Virus record (IMG/VR): IMGVR_UViG_2778261392_000002
Length of the DNA stretch: 10,810 nt
Reading direction: 5' to 3' (one strand)
Source of the DNA: a virus
Lineage: Duplodnaviria; Heunggongvirae; Uroviricota; Caudoviricetes
A program made the position numbers and the translations under genes. Within the stretch, counting starts at the first letter, position 1. Each line of letters starts with the position of its first letter. The notes under the pieces are model-generated. The model was not told where the DNA came from, made no database searches, and worked only from the letters and a program-made list of their open reading frames with translations. Of the stretch, positions 1-10,810 are shown one piece after another.

Positions 1-18
1 TACATTCCGTTTTGCCGC

Positions 19-44
19 TTCTCCCAAACCAACGTTTATGAAAA
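19..44. other. Candidate 26-bp invertase crossover site (gix/hix/cix/pix-like), imperfect dyad around a central AA dinucleotide
   Basis: TTCTCCCAAACC-AA-CGTTTATGAAAA: the half-sites match in 8 of 12 positions as inverted repeats, the AAACC / GTTT core resembles Hin/Gin/Cin crossover sites as I recall them, and it sits 56 bp upstream of the invertase start, as in Mu gin, P1 cin and e14 pin. Confidence 0.55.
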
Positions 45-99
45 TGCAGAGATAATGGCTAACTGGCATCATCCCCGGTTTTTATTCAGGGGGATGATC

Positions 100-666
100 A
101 TGCTTATTGGCTATGTACGCGTGTCAACAAATGACCAGAACACCGATTTGCAACGTAATGCACTGAACTGCGCGGGATGTGAGCGGATTTTTGAGGACAA
201 AATCAGTGGCACTAAGTCCGACAGACCGGGACTGAAAAAACTGCTCAGGACACTATCGGCAGGAGACACGCTGGTTGTCTGGAAGCTGGACAGGTTGGGG
301 CGCAGTATGCGGCATCTTGTTACGCTGATAGAAGAGTTACGCCAGCGTGGTGTGAATTTCAGAAGCCTGACTGACAGTATTGATACCAGTACCCCAATGG
401 GCCGTTTCTTTTTTCATGTCATGGGTGCCCTGGCTGAAATGGAACGCGAACTGATAGTTGAACGTACCAGGGCAGGGCTGGCTGCAGCTCGTGCCAAAGG
501 CAGAGTAGGTGGACGCCGTCCTAAGTTGACCACCGAACAGTGGGCACAGATTGGGCGTTTACTCGAGGCCGGAGAATCAAGACAGCGTATTGCACTGATT
601 TTTGATGTAGGCGTTTCTACCATTTATAGAAAATTTCCGGCAAATAAGAGCAATGAATCGCCCTGA
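100..666 (+). CDS. Serine DNA invertase (Pin/Gin/Cin/Hin family site-specific recombinase)
   Basis: Translation from ATG 100 begins MLIGYVRVSTNDQ (catalytic Ser motif of small serine recombinases) and ends with a helix-turn-helix (GVSTIYRKFP); about 188 aa, the family's typical size. AGGGGG at 88-93 is a good RBS for ATG 100; the ORF-track start at 55 adds 15 residues with no RBS and is probably not used. Confidence 0.9.
   Translation: MLIGYVRVSTNDQNTDLQRNALNCAGCERIFEDKISGTKSDRPGLKKLLRTLSAGDTLVVWKLDRLGRSMRHLVTLIEELRQRGVNFRSLTDSIDTSTPMGRFFFHVMGALAEMERELIVERTRAGLAAARAKGRVGGRRPKLTTEQWAQIGRLLEAGESRQRIALIFDVGVSTIYRKFPANKSNESP
121..200. promoter_or_regulatory. Possible Fis-dependent recombinational enhancer (sis-like) inside the 5' end of the invertase gene
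   Basis: In Hin/Gin/Cin systems the enhancer lies within the first ~100-200 bp of the invertase coding sequence. GTGTCAACAAATGACC...GATTTGCAACGTAATGC (121-162) resembles the hin/cin enhancer region as I recall it and contains a GTCA-N5-TGAC dyad at 123-135. Individual Fis sites could not be delimited. Confidence 0.3.
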
Positions 667-714
667 ATCAGCATTCTTTTGATTTTTCCTGTAAGCGGAC
701 AAATACCGTCATTT

Positions 715-732
715 TGTGTGAATAACGGCACA
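715..732 (+). promoter_or_regulatory. Candidate Ogr/Delta-type activator box (TGT-N12-ACA) of the P2 late promoter PF upstream of FI
   Basis: TGT(715-717)-N12-ACA(730-732), about 85 bp upstream of the FI start; P2/P4 late promoters carry this dyad near -55. No strong -10/-35 nearby, as expected for an activator-dependent promoter. Confidence 0.4.
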
Positions 733-808
733 ACTGCGATTAGCTGTTTGTCAGGCACAATCACTTCAACATAGGGCGAAGCCTAATCCAATCAGGAGGT
801 TCGCCACT

Positions 809-1981
809 ATGGCTCAGGATTACCACCACGGAGTGCGCGTTGTTGAAGTCAACGAAGGCACCCGATCCATTACCACGGTGAGCACCGCCATCGTGGGCAT
901 GGTCTGCACGGGCGATGATGCCGATGCAAAAATGTTTCCTCTTAATAAACCCGTGCTGATCACTGATGTGCTGACCGCCAGCGGTAAAGCGGGTGAGTCC
1001 GGCACGCTGGCCCGTTCGCTGGATGCTATCGCTGACCAGGCAAAACCCGTGACCGTTGTTGTGCGTGTGCCGCAGGGTGAAACGGAAGAAGAAACCACAA
1101 CCAATATCATCGGCGCAGTGACCGCCGAGGGTAAAAAAACAGGCATGAAAGCCCTGTTATCTTCCCAGTCACAACTCGGCGTTAAACCGCGCATTCTCGG
1201 CGTGCCAGGCCACGACACCAAGGCGGTAGCTACTGAGTTGCTGAGCGTGGCGCAAAGCCTGCGTGGGTTTGCTTACCTGTCAGCGTATGGCTGCAAGACG
1301 GTACAGGAGGCGATCACTTACCGTGAAAACTTCAGCCAGCGCGAAGGGATGCTGATCTGGCCTGACTTTACTGGCTGGGACACGGTGCTGAATGCCGAAG
1401 CAACGGCATATGCCACCGCCCGTGCGCTCGGTCTGCGCGCCAAAATTGATGAGCAGACCGGGTGGCACAAGAGCCTGTCCAACGTAGGCGTGAACGGTGT
1501 CACCGGAATTTCTGCTGATGTGTTCTGGGATCTGCAGGACCCGGCAACCGATGCAGGTCTGCTGAACCAGAACGACGTCACCACACTTGTGCGTAAAGAC
1601 GGCTTCCGCTTCTGGGGTTCCCGCTGCCTGAGTGATGACCCGCTCTTTGCCTTCGAAAACTACACCCGCACGGCGCAGGTGCTGATGGACACGATGGCAG
1701 AAGCACACATGTGGGCGGTGGATAAACCTCTTAACCCGTCGCTGGCCCGCGACATTATCGAAGGTATCCGCGCCAAAATGCGCAGCCTGGTCAGTCAGGG
1801 CTATCTCATTGGTGGTGATTGCTGGCTGGACGAGTCGGTGAACGACAAAGACACGCTGAAAGCCGGAAAACTCACCATCGACTACGACTACACGCCAGTG
1901 CCGCCACTTGAAAACCTGATGCTGCGTCAGCGCATCACCGATCAGTACCTGGTGAATTTCTCCAGCCAGGTCAGCGCGTAA
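809..1981 (+). CDS. FI: Contractile tail sheath protein (P2 gpFI family)
   Basis: 390-aa ORF; N-terminus [19 protein letters not shown]...AIVGMVCTG and C-terminal [13 protein letters not shown] closely resemble P2 FI as I recall it. AGGAGG at 793-798 precedes the ATG. Confidence 0.93.
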
Positions 1982-2863: not shown

Positions 2864-2997
2864 CGGTTGACGATCTGGTGGCTGATATCGCCACCATCTT
2901 TCACTGGCCGCCATCCGTTACTGACGTTATGCCGCTGACCGAAGTGCTGGAATGGCGGTATAAAGCGATTCAGAGAAGCGGGGCCAGCCATGAGTGA
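2561..2997 (+). CDS. E': Tail assembly chaperone gpE+E', predicted product of a programmed -1 frameshift at T_TTT_TTG (2818-2824)
   Basis: The heptamer T TTT TTG is in the correct phase of the E frame. The -1 frame from 2824 is open to TGA 2995-2997 and reads VEEVGACRFTDSLTVDDLVADIATIFHWPPSVTDVMPLTEVLEWRYKAIQRSGASHE, ending just inside the T start (2990). This is the arrangement described for P2 E/E' and analogous to lambda G/GT. Confidence 0.7.
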
Positions 2998-5900
2998 CAA
3001 TAACCTGCGTCTGCAGGTGATTCTTAATGCGGTTGACAAACTCACCCGCCCATTTCGTGCTGCACAGGCCAGTTCGAAAGAGCTGGCTGGCGCAATCAGA
3101 AACTCCCGTGACGCATTAAAGCAACTCAATCAGGCGGGTAACAGCCTGGAAAAATTTCGCAAGCTGCAGGCCGATAACAAGAAGTTAGGCGACAGGCTGA
3201 ACTATGCCAGACAGAAGGCTAATTTGCTTAGCTCTGAGCTGGAGGCGATGGAGCAACCATCACAACGACACCTTGTGGCTTTAGGTCGGCAAACGCTGGC
3301 AGTCCAACGTCTGGAAGAACAACAAAAATATTTGCAGAAGCAAACGGCGCTTGTGCGTGCAGAACTGTATCGGGCGGGAATTTCTGCGAAAGATGATGCA
3401 GGAGCAACTGCCCGTTTAGCCCGTGAAACATCACGTTATAACCAGGAACTGTCGAAACAGGAGGCGCGGCTGAAGCGACTGGGGGAAGCTCAGCGCAGGA
3501 TGAATGTAGCGCGTGCCAGTTATGCCCGTTCGCTGGAGGTGCGTGATCGTATTGCAGGTGCCGGAGCCACTACCACGGCGGCAGGGCTGGCAATGGGCGC
3601 GCCAGTGATGGCGGCAGTAAAAAGCTATACCAGCATGGAAGATGCCATGAAAGGTGTGGCAAAGCAGGTCAATGGTCTGCGTGACGATAATGGCAACCGC
3701 ACTGCACGTTTTTATGAAATGCAGGATGCCATCAAGGCTGCCAGCGAACAGTTGCCGATGGAAAACGGTGCTGTGGACTTCGCCGCACTGGTTGAAGGTG
3801 GTGCGCGCATGAACGTCGCAAACCCTGATGACAGCTGGGAAGACCAGAAACGTGACCTGCTGGCCTTCGCCAGCACGGCAGCAAAGGCGGCAACAGCCTT
3901 TGAGCTGCCAGCGGATGAACTGTCAGAAAGTCTGGGGAAAATCGCCCAGCTCTACAAAATCCCTACCCGCAATATTGAACAGCTCGGTGATGCGCTGAAC
4001 TTTCTGGATGATAACGCCATGTCGAAAGGGGCGGACATCATTGATGTGATGCAACGTCTGGGCGGTGTGGCTGACCGTCTGGATTATCGTAAAGCGGCGG
4101 CGCTGGGTTCCACCTTCCTGACACTGGGCGCTGCGCCGGAGGTTGCAGCCAGTGCAGCAAACGCGATGGTGCGTGAATTGTCCATTGCCACCATGCAAAG
4201 CAAGAGTTTCTTTGAAGGGATGAATCTGCTGAAACTCAATCCTGAAGTGATTGAAAAGCAGATGACGAAGGATGCGATGGGAACTATCCAGCGTGTGCTG
4301 GAGAAGGTGAACGCACTGCCGCAGGACAAGCGTCTGTCTGCCATGACCATGTTGTTTGGTAAAGAGTTTGGCGATGACGCGGCGAAACTGGCAAACAACC
4401 TGCCGGAACTACAGCGCCAGCTAAAACTGACTGCGGGCAATGATGCGCTCGGTTCCATGCAGAAAGAATCCGACATCAACAAAGACTCACTTTCTGCTCA
4501 GTGGTTGCTGGTCAAAACCGGAGCGCAGAACACCTTCAGCAGCCTGGGCGAAACGCTGCGCCAGCCGCTGATGGATATTCTGTACACGGTGAAAAGCGTC
4601 ACGGGGGCGTTGCGTCGCTGGGTGGAAGCTAACCCGGAACTGACAGGCACACTGATGAAAGCATCGGCTGTTGTAGCTGCGGTGACCGTCGGCCTCGGCA
4701 CCTTAGCGGTGGCGCTGGCTGCAGTGCTGGGGCCGCTGGCAGTGATCCGTCTGGGATTCTCTGTGCTGGGTATCAAAACGTTACCTTCCGTTACGGCAGC
4801 AGTAACTCGAACCAGCAGCGCGTTGTCCTGGCTGGCTGGCGCACCACTGGTACTGCTGCGACGCGGGCTTGCTTCATCGGGCAACGCTGCGGGTTTACTT
4901 ACTGCACCGTTGTCATCTTTGCGCCGCACGGCATCACTGACGGGAAATGTCATGAAAACTGTAGCAGGTGCGCCAGTTGCACTGTTGCGGTCTGGATTAT
5001 CCGGTTTACGTGCTGTTGCTGTGATGTTTATGAATCCACTGGCAGCACTGCGCGGTGGACTGACCGCCGCAGGCGCGGTGCTTCGTGTGCTTGCATCTGG
5101 TCCGCTGGCGATGCTGCGCGTTGCCCTGTATGCCATATCTGGTCTGTTAGGTGCTCTGCTCAGTCCGATAGGTCTTGTGGTTACTGCACTGGCGGGCGTG
5201 GCGCTGGTTGTCTGGAAATACTGGCAACCCATCACCGCATTTCTCGGTGGCGTGGTGGAAGGATTCAAAGCGGCGGCAGGTCCCATCAGTGCTGCATTCG
5301 AACCACTTAAGCCTGTGTTTCAGTGGATTGGCGACAAAGTACAGGCGCTGTGGGGCTGGTTTACTGATCTGCTGACGCCCGTTAAGTCGACCTCTGCCGA
5401 ACTGCAGAGCGCAGCGGCAATGGGGCGGCGATTCGGGGAGGCACTGGCGGAAGGGCTGAATATGGTCATGCATCCGCTGGACTCCCTGAAATCCGGCGTT
5501 TCCTGGTTGCTGGAGAAACTCGGCATTGTCAGTAAAGAGGCCGCAAAGGCAAAACTACCGGAAAGCGTGACGCGTCAGCAACCTGCGACGGTGAATGCAG
5601 ACGGTAAAGTGATGATGCCATCGGGTGGTTTTCCATCATGGGGATATGGCTTTGCGGGGATGTATGACAGCGGCGGCTATATTCCGCGCGGGCAGTTTGG
5701 CATCGTCGGTGAAAACGGGCCGGAAATTGTTAACGGCCCGGCAAATGTGACCAGCCGGAGAAATACAGCTGCACTGGCTGCCGTTGTTGCCGGAATGATG
5801 GGCGTTGCTGCCGCGCCTGCAGAGCTTCCACCGTTGCATCCTTTGGCACTTCCCGCGAAAGGCGGCGAAGCGATGGTGAGTCGTGCAGCCACTGTGCCGC

Positions 5901-6067
5901 CCGTTCACCGGATTGAGGCACCGACGCAGATCATCATTCAGACGCAGCCAGGACAAAGTGCGCAGGATATTGCGCGGGAGGTGGCACGCCAGCTTGATGA
6001 ACGTGAACGCAGGCTGAAGGCAAAAGCCAGGAGTAACTACAGCGATCAGGGGGGATACGACGCATGA
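2990..6067 (+). CDS. T: Tail tape measure protein (P2 gpT family), 1025 aa
   Basis: Very long ORF between the chaperone and gpU; coiled-coil-like N-terminal third, hydrophobic Ala/Leu/Gly-rich repeated middle, Gly-rich C-terminal part; position and composition typical of tape measure proteins. Confidence 0.9.
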   Translation: MSDNNLRLQVILNAVDKLTRPFRAAQASSKELAGAIRNSRDALKQLNQAGNSLEKFRKLQADNKKLGDRLNYARQKANLLSSELEAMEQPSQRHLVALGRQTLAVQRLEEQQKYLQKQTALVRAELYRAGISAKDDAGATARLARETSRYNQELSKQEARLKRLGEAQRRMNVARASYARSLEVRDRIAGAGATTTAAGLAMGAPVMAAVKSYTSMEDAMKGVAKQVNGLRDDNGNRTARFYEMQDAIKAASEQLPMENGAVDFAALVEGGARMNVANPDDSWEDQKRDLLAFASTAAKAATAFELPADELSESLGKIAQLYKIPTRNIEQLGDALNFLDDNAMSKGADIIDVMQRLGGVADRLDYRKAAALGSTFLTLGAAPEVAASAANAMVRELSIATMQSKSFFEGMNLLKLNPEVIEKQMTKDAMGTIQRVLEKVNALPQDKRLSAMTMLFGKEFGDDAAKLANNLPELQRQLKLTAGNDALGSMQKESDINKDSLSAQWLLVKTGAQNTFSSLGETLRQPLMDILYTVKSVTGALRRWVEANPELTGTLMKASAVVAAVTVGLGTLAVALAAVLGPLAVIRLGFSVLGIKTLPSVTAAVTRTSSALSWLAGAPLVLLRRGLASSGNAAGLLTAPLSSLRRTASLTGNVMKTVAGAPVALLRSGLSGLRAVAVMFMNPLAALRGGLTAAGAVLRVLASGPLAMLRVALYAISGLLGALLSPIGLVVTALAGVALVVWKYWQPITAFLGGVVEGFKAAAGPISAAFEPLKPVFQWIGDKVQALWGWFTDLLTPVKSTSAELQSAAAMGRRFGEALAEGLNMVMHPLDSLKSGVSWLLEKLGIVSKEAAKAKLPESVTRQQPATVNADGKVMMPSGGFPSWGYGFAGMYDSGGYIPRGQFGIVGENGPEIVNGPANVTSRRNTAALAAVVAGMMGVAAAPAELPPLHPLALPAKGGEAMVSRAATVPPVHRIEAPTQIIIQTQPGQSAQDIAREVARQLDERERRLKAKARSNYSDQGGYDA
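4830..5165 (+). repeat. About five degenerate tandem coding repeats (~22 aa each) inside the tape measure gene
   Basis: Protein-level repeats: GAPLVLLRRGLASSG / APLSSLRRTASLTG / APVALLRSGLSGLR / PLAALRGGLTAAG / PLAMLRVALYAISG, spaced roughly every 66 nt. Confidence 0.5.
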
Positions 6068-6549
6068 TGATGGTGCTGGGATTGTACGTGTTTATGCTGC
6101 GCACCGTTCCGTATCAGGAACTGCAGTATCAACGCAGCTGGCGACATGCGGCAAACAGCCGGGTAAACCGTCGTCCATCCACGCAGTTTCTGGGACCGGA
6201 CAACGACATGCTGACGCTTTCTGGTGTTCTTATGCCGGAGATAACGGGCGGCAGGCTGTCGTTGCTGGCTCTGGAGCAGATGGCAGAACAGGGAAAAGCA
6301 TGGCCCCTGATTGAAGGCAGCGGCACGATTTACGGCATGTATGTGATTGAGGGACTGAATCTGACTAAAACGGAGTTTTTCCGCGACGGTATGCCGCGCC
6401 GGATTGAGTTCACCCTGTCGCTCAAACGGGTGGATGAATCCCTGTCCGATATGTTCGGTGATCTCAGTACGCAACTGAATAATCTGCAGGACACGGCAAC
6501 ATCTGCCTTAAGTGATATCAGTAAAACGGTGGGAGGGCTGCTGTCGTGA
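6064..6549 (+). CDS. U: Tail protein gpU (P2 family)
   Basis: 161-aa ORF whose ATG (6064) overlaps the T stop TGA (6065-6067); GGGGGGA RBS upstream; size and position match P2 U. Confidence 0.88.
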   Translation: MMMVLGLYVFMLRTVPYQELQYQRSWRHAANSRVNRRPSTQFLGPDNDMLTLSGVLMPEITGGRLSLLALEQMAEQGKAWPLIEGSGTIYGMYVIEGLNLTKTEFFRDGMPRRIEFTLSLKRVDESLSDMFGDLSTQLNNLQDTATSALSDISKTVGGLLS

Positions 6550-7646
6550 ATTTCAGCTCTGAACTGCTTAACAAAGGCAACAAAACTCCCGCATTCAGCA
6601 TCAGTATTGAGGGCAGGGATATCACCACTGTGCTGGATAACCGCCTGATGAGGCTGACGCTGACGGATAACCGGGGCTTTGAAGCGGACCAGCTTGATCT
6701 GGAGCTGGACGACGCCGATGGAAAAATAGCGCTGCCGCGCCGTGGTGCGGTCATTACGCTGGCGCTGGGCTGGAAGGGGCAGCCGCTTTTCCCGAAAGGG
6801 GCATTCACGGTGGACGAGATTGAACACACTGGCGCACCGGACCGCCTGACTATCCGGGCGCGAAGTGCTGATTTTCGGGAAACGCTGAATACCCGCCGTG
6901 AAAAATCGTGGCATAAGACCACCGTCGGGGAAGTGGTGAAGGAAATAGCCTCGCGGCATAAGCTGAAGATGGCACTGGGTAAAGAGCTGTCGGATAAGCC
7001 CGTGGAGCATATAGACCAGACTAATGAGAGTGACGGTAGTTTTCTGATGCGGCTGGCGCGACAGTACGGTGCCATCGCGTCGGTGAAAAATGGCAATCTG
7101 TTATTCATCCGGCAGGGGCAGGGCAAAAGCGCCACTGGTAAACCACTGCCGGTGATCACTATCACACGCAAGGACGGCGACAGTCACCGCTTTACCCTGG
7201 CAGATCGCGGAGCCTACACGGGCGTAATTGCCAGCTGGTTGCATACCCGCGAACCCGCGAAGAAAGAAAGCACCACGGTGAAGCGTAAGCGCAGGACTAA
7301 GAAGCAGAAGAAAGAGCCGGAAGCGAAGCAGGGCGATTACTTGGTGGGTACGGATGAAAACGTGCTGGTACTTAATCGCACCTATGCCAACCGGGGCAAC
7401 GCCGAACGGGCAGCGAAAATGCAGTGGGAACGCCTGCAACGCGGTGTTGCGTCATTCTCGCTACAACTGGCAGAAGGTCGGGCAGATCTCTACACGGAAA
7501 TGCCAGTGAAAGTCAGTGGCTTTAAACAGCCGATAGATGATGCGGAATGGACTATTACCACCCTGACGCATACTGTCAGCCCGGATAACGGTTTTACAAC
7601 CAGTCTGGAACTTGAAGTGAGGATTGATGATTTCGAAATGGAATGA
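6546..7646 (+). CDS. D: Tail protein gpD (P2 family)
   Basis: 366-aa ORF with a GTG start overlapping the U stop (GTGA at 6546-6549); GGGAGGG RBS at 6529-6535; last gene of the FETUD operon before ogr, as in P2. Confidence 0.88.
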   Translation: MNFSSELLNKGNKTPAFSISIEGRDITTVLDNRLMRLTLTDNRGFEADQLDLELDDADGKIALPRRGAVITLALGWKGQPLFPKGAFTVDEIEHTGAPDRLTIRARSADFRETLNTRREKSWHKTTVGEVVKEIASRHKLKMALGKELSDKPVEHIDQTNESDGSFLMRLARQYGAIASVKNGNLLFIRQGQGKSATGKPLPVITITRKDGDSHRFTLADRGAYTGVIASWLHTREPAKKESTTVKRKRRTKKQKKEPEAKQGDYLVGTDENVLVLNRTYANRGNAERAAKMQWERLQRGVASFSLQLAEGRADLYTEMPVKVSGFKQPIDDAEWTITTLTHTVSPDNGFTTSLELEVRIDDFEME

Positions 7647-7736
7647 TTCTTCGCAATGGAGAACTTTTAAGTTTGCAAAATGGAATAATGCGGTATCATT
7701 ATTGTGAATTTAGCAAAAATGGGGAGAACTCGAAAA

Positions 7737-7955
7737 ATGATGATTTGCCCACTGTGTGGAAGTGCCGCCCATACTCGCAGCAGTTTTCAGGTATCTTCAT
7801 TGACCAAAGAGCGTTACAACCAGTGCCAGAATATTAACTGCAGCCATACTTTTGTAACCCATGAAACTTTTGTTCGTTCGATTGCAACGCCAAAAGAGTC
7901 AAATCCGGTTCAGCCGCATCCAATGAAATCAGGACAGGTGGCGCTCTCTCTTTGA
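7737..7955 (+). CDS. ogr: Late gene transcriptional activator Ogr (Ogr/Delta zinc-finger family)
   Basis: 72-aa product from ATG 7737: MMICPLCGSAAHTRSS...KERYNQCQNINCSHTF, with a CxxC...CxxxxC zinc-binding motif and size matching P2 Ogr. GGGGAGAA RBS at 7721-7728. The ORF-track start at 7704 adds 11 residues and is probably not used. Confidence 0.85.
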   Translation: MMICPLCGSAAHTRSSFQVSSLTKERYNQCQNINCSHTFVTHETFVRSIATPKESNPVQPHPMKSGQVALSL

Positions 7956-8041
7956 CGCTGCCGCCAATTTGTCGCCATCATTAAAAAACAGTGCGTCTAA
8001 CATCATGATTTTAAAAGGCATAAATTTCAGGCAACAAAAAA

Positions 8042-8078
8042 CCCATCAACCTTGAACCGAAATGGCGGGGTTGATGGG
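8042..8078 (-). terminator. Candidate intrinsic terminator for ybjL (minus strand): 10-bp stem CCCATCAACC / GGTTGATGGG with a U-tract on the minus strand
   Basis: Perfect 10-bp inverted repeat (8042-8051 and 8069-8078) preceded on the plus strand by the A-run 8036-8041, i.e. followed by UUUUUUGUU on the minus strand; about 113 nt downstream of the ybjL stop. The 17-nt loop is long for a canonical terminator. Confidence 0.4.
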
Positions 8079-8190
8079 CTCCACAAAATGGGGACATCAA
8101 AGAAAAGCAGTGGCACTAATTAAGACTGATGCCCTGCGGAAAAGTTCTGCGGTTGTGCAAAAAAATTTCATTTTCAGGGCAACTTCAGTT

Positions 8191-9876
8191 TTATCCTAAT
8201 CCTGGCCATACCATGACGATGATTGTCCCTGCCAGCGTCAGCAGGACGTTGGCGATTGCGTAGGTGCCCGCATAGCCCAGCGCAGGGATGTTACTGCGAG
8301 CTGTATCACTGATGATCTCCATTGCCGGCGCGCAGGTGCGTGCGCCCATCATTGCGCCGAACAACAGTGCGCGGTTCATTCGCAATACATAAGCACCGAA
8401 CAAGAAACAGATAACCACGGGCACAAGACTGACAATTAATCCGGCAATCAACATCTGACCGCCAATCGCGCCCAGGCCGTTATTAATACCGCTACCGGCG
8501 CTCAGACCAACGCCTGCCATAAACACCATCAAGCCGAACTCTTTCACCATGCTTAATGCACCTTGCGGAATGTAACCGAAGGTCGGGTGGTTAGCACGCA
8601 TAAAGCCCAGCATAATTCCGGCGAATAACAACCCGGCAGCGTTCCCCATGCCGAAACTGAATGTGCTGAACTGGAAGGTGATCATCCCGATCATCAGCCC
8701 AATAACAAAGAAGGCGCAAAATGCCAGCAGGTCAGTGACCTGGCTGTGAATCGAGATAAAGCCGATGCGATCGGCGATGGTTTTTACGCGACGGGCATCA
8801 CCGCTGACTTGTAAAACGTCACCTTTGTTAAGCACGACGTTGTCATCTATCGGCATCTCAATCTGGCTACGAATGACGCGGTTAAGGAAGCAACCGTGAT
8901 CGGTCAACTTCAGTTGTGCGAGACGTTTACCTACAGCGTTATGGTTTTTAACGACCACTTCTTCAGTGACGATACGCATGTCGAGAAGGTCACGATCGAA
9001 AACTTCTTTACCGTTACGGAAGCTGGGATCGAGTCGGGCATGGGCGTCGGGATAGCCTACCAACGCTATTTCATCGCCCATTTGTAGCACGGCATCACCG
9101 TCTGGATTTGCCAGAATCCCGTTACGTCGAATACGTTCAATGTAGCAGCCGGTTTGTCGATAAATACCCAGTTCACGCAGATTTTTGCCGTCGGTCCAGG
9201 CCACCAGCTCCGGGCCGACGCGATAGGCGCGGATCACCGGTAAATAAACCTTACGGTTGGCATCAGTGTCCAGGCCACGTTCGCGGGCGATTTGCTGGGC
9301 GCTGGTCTGTAAGTCCTGATGCTGCAATTTCGGCAAGTAACGCGCACCAACAATCAAACTCACCAGACCGATTAAATAGGTTAAGGCATACCCGAGGCTC
9401 AGATTATCCAGTGCCAGTGAGAGCTGCCTGCTTTCCATGCCGAAATGACGCAGTGTATCGCCAGCACCGACCAGAACCGGTGTCGACGTCATAGAGCCTG
9501 CTAACATACCGGCCGTCAGGCCAATATCCCAGCCAAACAGCTTACCTAACCCTAAGGCGATCACCAGCGCACTGCCAACCATCACCAGTGCTAACATTAG
9601 GTAATTTTTCCCATCGCGAAAAAAAATGGAAAAAAAGTTCGGTCCGGCTTCGACCCCGACGCAGAAAATAAACAGCATAAAGCCAAGATTAAGCGCATCG
9701 GTGTTAATGCTGAAATGTTGTTGGCCTAATAACAGCGATACGACTAAAACGCCAATGGAATTACCCAGTTGGATCGAACCAAGTCGTAACTTTCCGAGAC
9801 ATAGCCCAAGCGCGAGGACCACAAATAATAACAGAATGTAATTCCCATTTAACAATTCGGCGACGTTTATATTCAC
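8191..9876 (-). CDS. ybjL: Putative transporter YbjL (AAE-family membrane protein with central RCK_C/TrkA-C domains)
   Basis: 561-aa minus-strand ORF with hydrophobic N- and C-terminal halves flanking a soluble central region; sequence and length match E. coli YbjL as I recall it. Apparent GTG start at 9876. Confidence 0.92.
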
Positions 9877-10145: not shown

Positions 10146-10523
10146 GTGAAACATAAACAACGTTGGGCGGGGGCAATCTGCTGTTTTGTCCTCTTCATTG
10201 TGGTGTGCCTTTTTCTGGCGACGCACATGAAAGGCGCTTTTCGGGCTGCCGGGCATCCTGAAATCGGCTTGCTATTTTTCATTCTTCCTGGAGCAGTTGC
10301 CAGTTTCTTTTCACAGCGTAGAGAAGTCCTGAAACCTCTATTTGGCGCAATGCTGGCGGCACCCTGTTCAATGCTCATTATGCGGCTGTTTTTTTCACCG
10401 ACGCGCTCATTCTGGCAAGAGCTGGCATGGTTACTAAGCGCGGTGTTCTGGTGTGCGCTGGGGGCACTGTGTTTCTTATTTATCAGTAGTTTGTTTAAAC
10501 CACAGCACAGAAAAAATCAGTAA
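10146..10523 (+). CDS. ybjM: Inner membrane protein YbjM
   Basis: 125-aa highly hydrophobic ORF with a GTG start preceded by AGGAGG at 10134-10139; gene order ybjL-ybjM-grxA matches the E. coli chromosome. Confidence 0.85.
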   Translation: MKHKQRWAGAICCFVLFIVVCLFLATHMKGAFRAAGHPEIGLLFFILPGAVASFFSQRREVLKPLFGAMLAAPCSMLIMRLFFSPTRSFWQELAWLLSAVFWCALGALCFLFISSLFKPQHRKNQ

Positions 10524-10552: not shown

Positions 10553-10810
10553 TCAGGCGTCCAGATTTTCTTTCACCCATGCAGCAAAATCGGTATAGCC
10601 GCCGATATGTTGCTGATCGACAAAAATCTGCGGCACGGTTTCTACGGGTTTACCTGCCTTTTGTTGTAGATCTTCTTTAGTGATCCCTTCCGCACGAATA
10701 TCTACATACTGATACTGAAAATCATCGCGTTCATTGCTCAATTTCTCAGCCAGATCTTTTGCACGCACACAGTAAGGGCAACCCGAACGACCAAAAATAA
10801 CGGTTTGCAT
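10553..10810 (-). CDS. grxA: Glutaredoxin 1
   Basis: 85-aa minus-strand ORF MQTVIFGRSGCPYCVRAKD... with the CPYC active site; start codon is the last three bases of the window. The upstream regulatory region is off-window. Confidence 0.95.
   Translation of the reverse strand: MQTVIFGRSGCPYCVRAKDLAEKLSNERDDFQYQYVDIRAEGITKEDLQQKAGKPVETVPQIFVDQQHIGGYTDFAAWVKENLDA

Follow-up and report, generated by a model that had tools for sequence, protein, structure and literature searches.

The stretch of DNA that we analysed (the window, 10,810 nucleotides) runs from the right arm of a P2-like prophage of the Cartapus/Fels-2 type, integrated beside ybjL, into the E. coli chromosome, and the best-matching complete E. 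coli genomes span all of it at 97.7-97.8% identity. On the plus strand it carries a recombinase gene (100-666) encoding a DNA invertase of 188 amino acids (Pfam Resolvase and HTH_7), followed by the genes for the tail sheath FI (809-1981; Pfam Phage_sheath_1 and Phage_sheath_1C, and annotated relatives), the tail tube FII (1991-2506; Pfam tube match), E (2561-2863), the tape measure T (2990-6067), U (6064-6549), D (6546-7646) and ogr (7704-7955; Pfam Ogr_Delta). Beyond these lie ybjL (8191-9876, minus strand), ybjM (10146-10523, plus strand) and grxA (10553-10810, minus strand). The open reading frames of the window, their Pfam domains and a gene-by-gene reading of annotated relatives follow the gene order of P2, that is H, G, cargo, FI, FII, E/E+E', T, U, D and ogr. 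The invertase occupies the slot between G and FI (Z/fun), with FI as its conserved right-hand neighbour. This is the slot to which the earlier note had assigned it, in agreement with published descriptions of the P2 Z/fun hotspot between tail genes, where invertases are reported as frequent cargo, with inverted neighbouring genes (bioRxiv 10.1101/2024.10.15.618418, a 2024 preprint).

Several other features of this prophage arm were observed along the way. A slippery heptamer, T TTT TTG, lies in the E reading frame at 2818-2824 and is followed by a short open reading frame, labelled 'GpE family' in relatives, that ends at 2997; together we take them to be the usual E/E+E' programmed -1 frameshift of the P2 tail assembly chaperone. 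A TGT-N12-ACA dyad at 715-732 (TGTGTGAATAACGGCACA), some 77 nt 5' of the start of FI, bears what we take to be a resemblance to the Ogr-dependent late promoter element of P2, and the motif occurs 5 times in the window against 2.9 expected, which is not significant alone. If this dyad is a late promoter, the invertase would sit between two late transcription units. The right junction of prophage and chromosome falls within 7956-8190, between ogr and ybjL, and the positions at which two related contigs (L004 and L007) depart from the window are concentrated at 7967-8031, an indication that the end of the prophage is variable there. Outside the window, related contigs vary at another slot too, which separates the tail genes S and V (tail completion/baseplate V) and holds different cargo on the minus strand (L002 1930-2949, L004 21-1903, L005 1081-1887, L001 2401-2931); examples in relatives are a DUF5677 protein, an AAA_15/SMC_N ATPase with an HNH protein, and a DUF6216 protein, and the slot looks like a defence-type hotspot.

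The invertase and the adjoining crossover site

By its amino acid sequence, we assign the product of 100-666 to the small serine recombinases of the Din family, as an orthologue of Pin. The protein begins MLIGYVRVSTNDQ, matches Pfam Resolvase (E 2e-53) and HTH_7 (E 1e-15), and is 87% identical to PinE of e14. Its residues 1-184 align with 3UJ3 and 4M6F, two crystal structures of Mu Gin (E 8e-93 for 3UJ3), and the VRVSTNDQ stretch is present. It shows the features of the Din family, namely a length of about 190 amino acids, an N-terminal catalytic domain with a Ser9 nucleophile and a C-terminal helix-turn-helix; Ser9, His106 and Met114 are as in wild-type Gin, and the crystallised Gin proteins have V at 114. 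The mechanical open reading frame opens further upstream, with an ATG at 55. We nevertheless place the start at 100, because the N-termini of e14 PinE and P1 Cin (both MLIGYVRVST) and of Mu Gin (VLIGYVRVST) match there and relatives annotate the equivalent position. A purine run, GGGGGA, provides a ribosome-binding stretch just 5' of this ATG.

Upstream of the gene, at 19-44 on the plus strand, we found a crossover site of the pix/gix type, TTCTCCCAAACC AA CGTTTATGAAAA, with its AA core at 31-32. Its 12-bp half-sites match at 8/12 positions and thus form an imperfect dyad. The 26-mer has a single copy in the window, and 200 shuffles of the sequence gave 0 matches at three mismatches or fewer. 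It is identical at 26/26 positions to the e14 site adjoining pinE in E. coli K-12, and it aligns with Mu gixR (TTCCTGTAAACC GA GGTTTTGGATAA) and with P1 cixR, to which it is clearly related. A Pin/Gin/Cin-like invertase directly before the sheath gene, preceded by an imperfect dyad with a central AA resembling hix, gix and cix sites, was the core of the earlier note, and domain assignments and alignments bear it out; the gap between site and gene, which the note had given as 56 bp, measures 55 nt (45-99), the equivalent in Mu being 54 nt. This spacer is partly conserved with e14 and Mu in an alignment, and a scan of it for a sigma-70 consensus promoter of the invertase found none. It also contains, at 61-80 on the plus strand, a weak hairpin followed by a T run, which could shield the invertase from late transcription reading through the segment described below.

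A partner site and an invertible segment in near-identical contigs

The window itself reaches only 30 bases beyond the crossover core on the left and includes neither a partner site nor the tail-fibre genes; all evidence from beyond its edge was read in near-identical contigs, which are other molecules. Six loci were found on contigs whose tape-measure protein is exactly that of the window. One contig, L005 (ENA ERZ13404952), differs from the window by 1 mismatch in 10,810, base 1 of the window being its base 7012. At 5451-5476 of L005 there is a partner site, TTCTCGCATACC TT GGTTTGGGAGAA, in inverted orientation and 1,579 bp upstream, centre to centre. The core dinucleotides of the two sites match, the left being TT on the plus strand and the right being AA on the plus strand, which is TT on the other strand. 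The pair thus has the form known from the Din family (two 26-bp sites in inverted orientation, imperfect 12-bp inverted half-sites, a 2-bp core), each site departing from the family pattern at one or two positions. From the core inward the arms are a perfect inverted repeat for 32 bp and an imperfect one for about 75 bp, and the outer half-sites diverge. A third site, which would be the sign of a shufflon, was sought in L005, where we found two good sites only; the other matches have 7 mismatches and lie elsewhere.

The left core falls in codon 350 of the tail-fibre gene H of L005. The segment between the two sites holds a C-terminal tip of the tail fibre and a Caudo_TAP chaperone, then another chaperone and another tip, both encoded on the opposite strand and the tip lacking a promoter. 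Each orientation yields a complete H protein, of 473 or 471 amino acids, with the N-terminal 350 residues in common (343/350 identical between L004-type and L005-type prophages). The two tips (Gp53-like_C, 121-123 residues each) are identical at 47/130 positions, and the two oppositely oriented Caudo_TAP chaperones at 36/148. The arrangement is that of the tail-fibre switches of Mu (G segment) and P1 (C segment), with the crossover inside H, a constant N-terminus in frame with alternative C-termini, and a chaperone behind each of them.

Bases 1-30 of the window form the inner end of the right inverted-repeat arm and belong to the 32 bp over which the two arms do not differ. Read on the minus strand, they encode ...GLGEAAKRNV..., the shared join in the silent cassette for a tail-fibre C-terminus. 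On the same strand, the reading frame that opens with an ATG at 69-67 runs through the crossover site into this silent cassette (MPVSHYLCIFINVGLGEAAKRNV...; window 1-69), and gene callers therefore annotate in relatives a 'gp53-like domain-containing protein' or 'tail fiber protein' of 134-136 amino acids. This ATG is probably an accidental start and not the beginning of a separate gene.

Both orientations among near-identical prophages

The segment exists in both orientations in nature, among near-identical prophages. Over the 1,577 bp between the cores, contig L004 is the reverse complement of L005 at 1576/1577 positions and contig L006 at 1575/1577, and the right flank of L004 is identical to that of L005 at 2957/2957. 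Of 5,426 complete E. coli genomes, 47 have the L004-type junction and 12 the L005-type one. The sequences locate the breakpoint no more closely than to the core together with the 32 identical bases, a result that is compatible with exchange at the core but no proof of it. We also sought the orientation of the window itself. The last mismatch between L004 and L005 is at L005 7009, which corresponds to window position -2, so that the window is uninformative on this point, its bases 1-30 lying wholly within the 32-bp stretch common to both arms. With these comparisons the earlier expectations of an inverted partner upstream, of tail-fibre C-termini and assembly genes between the sites, and of two orientations were all realised, the exception being the distance, proposed as 2-4 kb and measured at 1.58 kb.

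Two draft-genome contigs, L007 and L008, begin at the base equivalent to 5498 of L004 and L005, which is 34 bp inside the left site and just past the 32-bp repeat, and they carry the segment in opposite orientations. We considered these contig ends as evidence of mixed orientations in the sequenced cultures and did not accept them as such. They may equally well be due to the constant part of H, of which other P2-like prophages in the same cell have copies, a repetition that would interrupt an assembly in any case.

A candidate enhancer within the invertase gene

Positions 118-189 of the window are equivalent to nucleotides 19-90 of P1 cin, which are annotated as the 'enhancer of Cin-mediated C-segment inversion', with 56/72 bases identical. 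Two G-N13-C motifs, at nucleotides 22-36 and 71-85 of the invertase gene, also occur in pinE and gin. We found no extra synonymous conservation in the candidate enhancer, where third positions agree at 17/24 with pinE, 9/24 with gin and 12/24 with cin, the values elsewhere in the invertase gene being 57, 43 and 39 per 100, respectively. From its position, and by analogy with P1, we presume that 118-189 is a Fis-bound recombinational enhancer.

Comparison with known inversion systems

The closest known system is the P segment of e14 with its invertase PinE. In addition to the 87% identical invertase and the 26/26 right site directly 5' of the invertase gene, e14 has the layout seen here, in which a tip and a chaperone are followed by an inverted chaperone and an inverted tip and the left site falls within the tail-fibre gene. 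It differs in being a lambdoid element that is defective, with stfE annotated as a pseudogene, whereas the prophage described here is of a P2-type myovirus with a full tail gene set in the window, and the tip cassettes of the two are unrelated immediately inside the site. The G segment of Mu, with Gin, has its site 54 nt before gin (55 here) and its invertase likewise outside and to the right of the segment, and its genes S/U and S'/U' follow the same logic of a constant N-terminus joined to a variable C-terminus with a chaperone. The Mu segment is, however, about 3 kb long with a GA/TC core, against 1.58 kb and AA/TT here; the variable parts are much shorter here (about 120 amino acids), and the phage family differs. 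The C segment of P1 belongs to the same family of enzymes and sites (TTCTCTTAAACC AA GG...), and its enhancer is the one annotated at nucleotides 19-90 of cin, but cin is found at the opposite side, with cixL overlapping its 3' end, and the C segment measures 4.2 kb. The geometry that the earlier note had attributed to Mu, P1 and e14 alike is consequently shared with Mu and e14 and not with P1.

Phage Cartapus (E. coli LF82) is 97.1% identical over positions 2-1200 of the window and agrees with it in gene order, and its invertase gene bears the label 'DNA-invertase, Mu Gin homolog'; the same layout is annotated in many E. coli chromosomes. Fels-2 reportedly carries an invertase as well, named Fin in work attributed to Kutsukake et al. 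from 2006. Cartapus is described as related to P2 and close to Fels-2 (PMC9928086). Read mapping and PCR have documented inversion in e14, and likewise in two P2-like prophages of EPEC E2348/69, which was read as an alternation of tail fibres (Goldberg et al. 2014, PMC4272514). We see no substantial difference between such P2-like invertible loci and the one described here, which has its own pair of tip cassettes; one of the EPEC E2348/69 prophages has three repeats and four variants, in contrast to the two sites here. The stretch comprising the invertase and the start of the sheath gene (window 1-1200) is covered to at least 80% in 661 of the 5,426 complete E. coli genomes, and also occurs in phage records listed under Klebsiella and Escherichia. 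The switch is thus already known, being widespread, annotated and published, and the locus is a further copy of a documented system.

Discussion

Taken together, the paired sites, the adjoining invertase and the two orientations of the segment are best read as a classical Din-invertase switch, which flips the 1,577-bp segment and thereby alternates the tip of the tail fibre H, a reading to which we give a probability of about 0.93. The invertase would bind both inverted 26-bp sites (at window 19-44 and at H codon 350) and, by analogy with Gin, Hin and Cin, would be activated by Fis bound to an enhancer in cis, within the 5' part of the gene that encodes it. Strand exchange at the 2-bp cores would then flip the segment, so that the constant 350 residues of H are fused in frame to either of two dissimilar tips, with the cognate chaperone placed behind, and a population of lysogens would release virions of two host specificities. 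We infer that the process depends on Fis and the enhancer and that it is currently active in the source strain; an effect of the tip swap on host range would follow from what is established for Mu and P1.

The two orientations could also be seen as the trace of old or rare events at a frozen relic whose invertase or sites no longer function. Such a reading would fit an invertase for which the scan found no consensus promoter upstream, and an enhancer deduced from its position. Against it, the open reading frame of the invertase is intact and retains the catalytic Ser9 and all the Gin-like residues, and the site is the same, base for base, as that of e14, whose inversion has been observed in cultures. 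Moreover, we conclude that the inversion is recent, since a single base in 1,577 separates the oppositely oriented segments and the right flank is identical, and related P2-like prophages do switch in culture. A decayed switch is for us an unlikely explanation. General homologous recombination between the inverted repeats of 32-75 bp, with no part played by the adjacent recombinase, seems more improbable still. The interval to which the breakpoint can be assigned, the core and the 32 identical bases, is of a length that permits exchange by RecA, though inefficiently; yet a dedicated Din-family invertase is encoded 55 nt from a canonical 26-bp site, the outer half-sites are fixed and the cores match, and the same architecture has been defined enzymatically in Mu, P1 and e14. 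With this canonical pair of enzyme and site, inversion by RecA is unnecessary as an explanation, and site-specific inversion by the Din invertase is the reading that we retain.

As a discovery the locus carries little weight, and it mainly shows that the inference drawn from sequence alone was sound. It has some practical consequences for annotation, given that the short 'gp53-like' or 'hypothetical' open reading frame that runs across the right site in such prophages is better described as a silent tail-fibre cassette with an accidental start. Assemblies of lysogens may show either orientation, and tail-fibre calls can for that reason differ between otherwise identical prophages.

Din invertases can replace one another. 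Because of this interchangeability, and because the site is identical to that of e14, the invertase could potentially act in trans on the segments of other prophages (e14-, Mu- or other P2-type), or its own segment could be served by their enzymes, a tentative idea that we hold at somewhat under even odds. If such action in trans occurs, a shared pool of invertases would link the states of the tail fibres of several prophages that reside in the same cell. For those who use these prophages, or tailocins derived from them, two receptor specificities may be expected from each lysogen.
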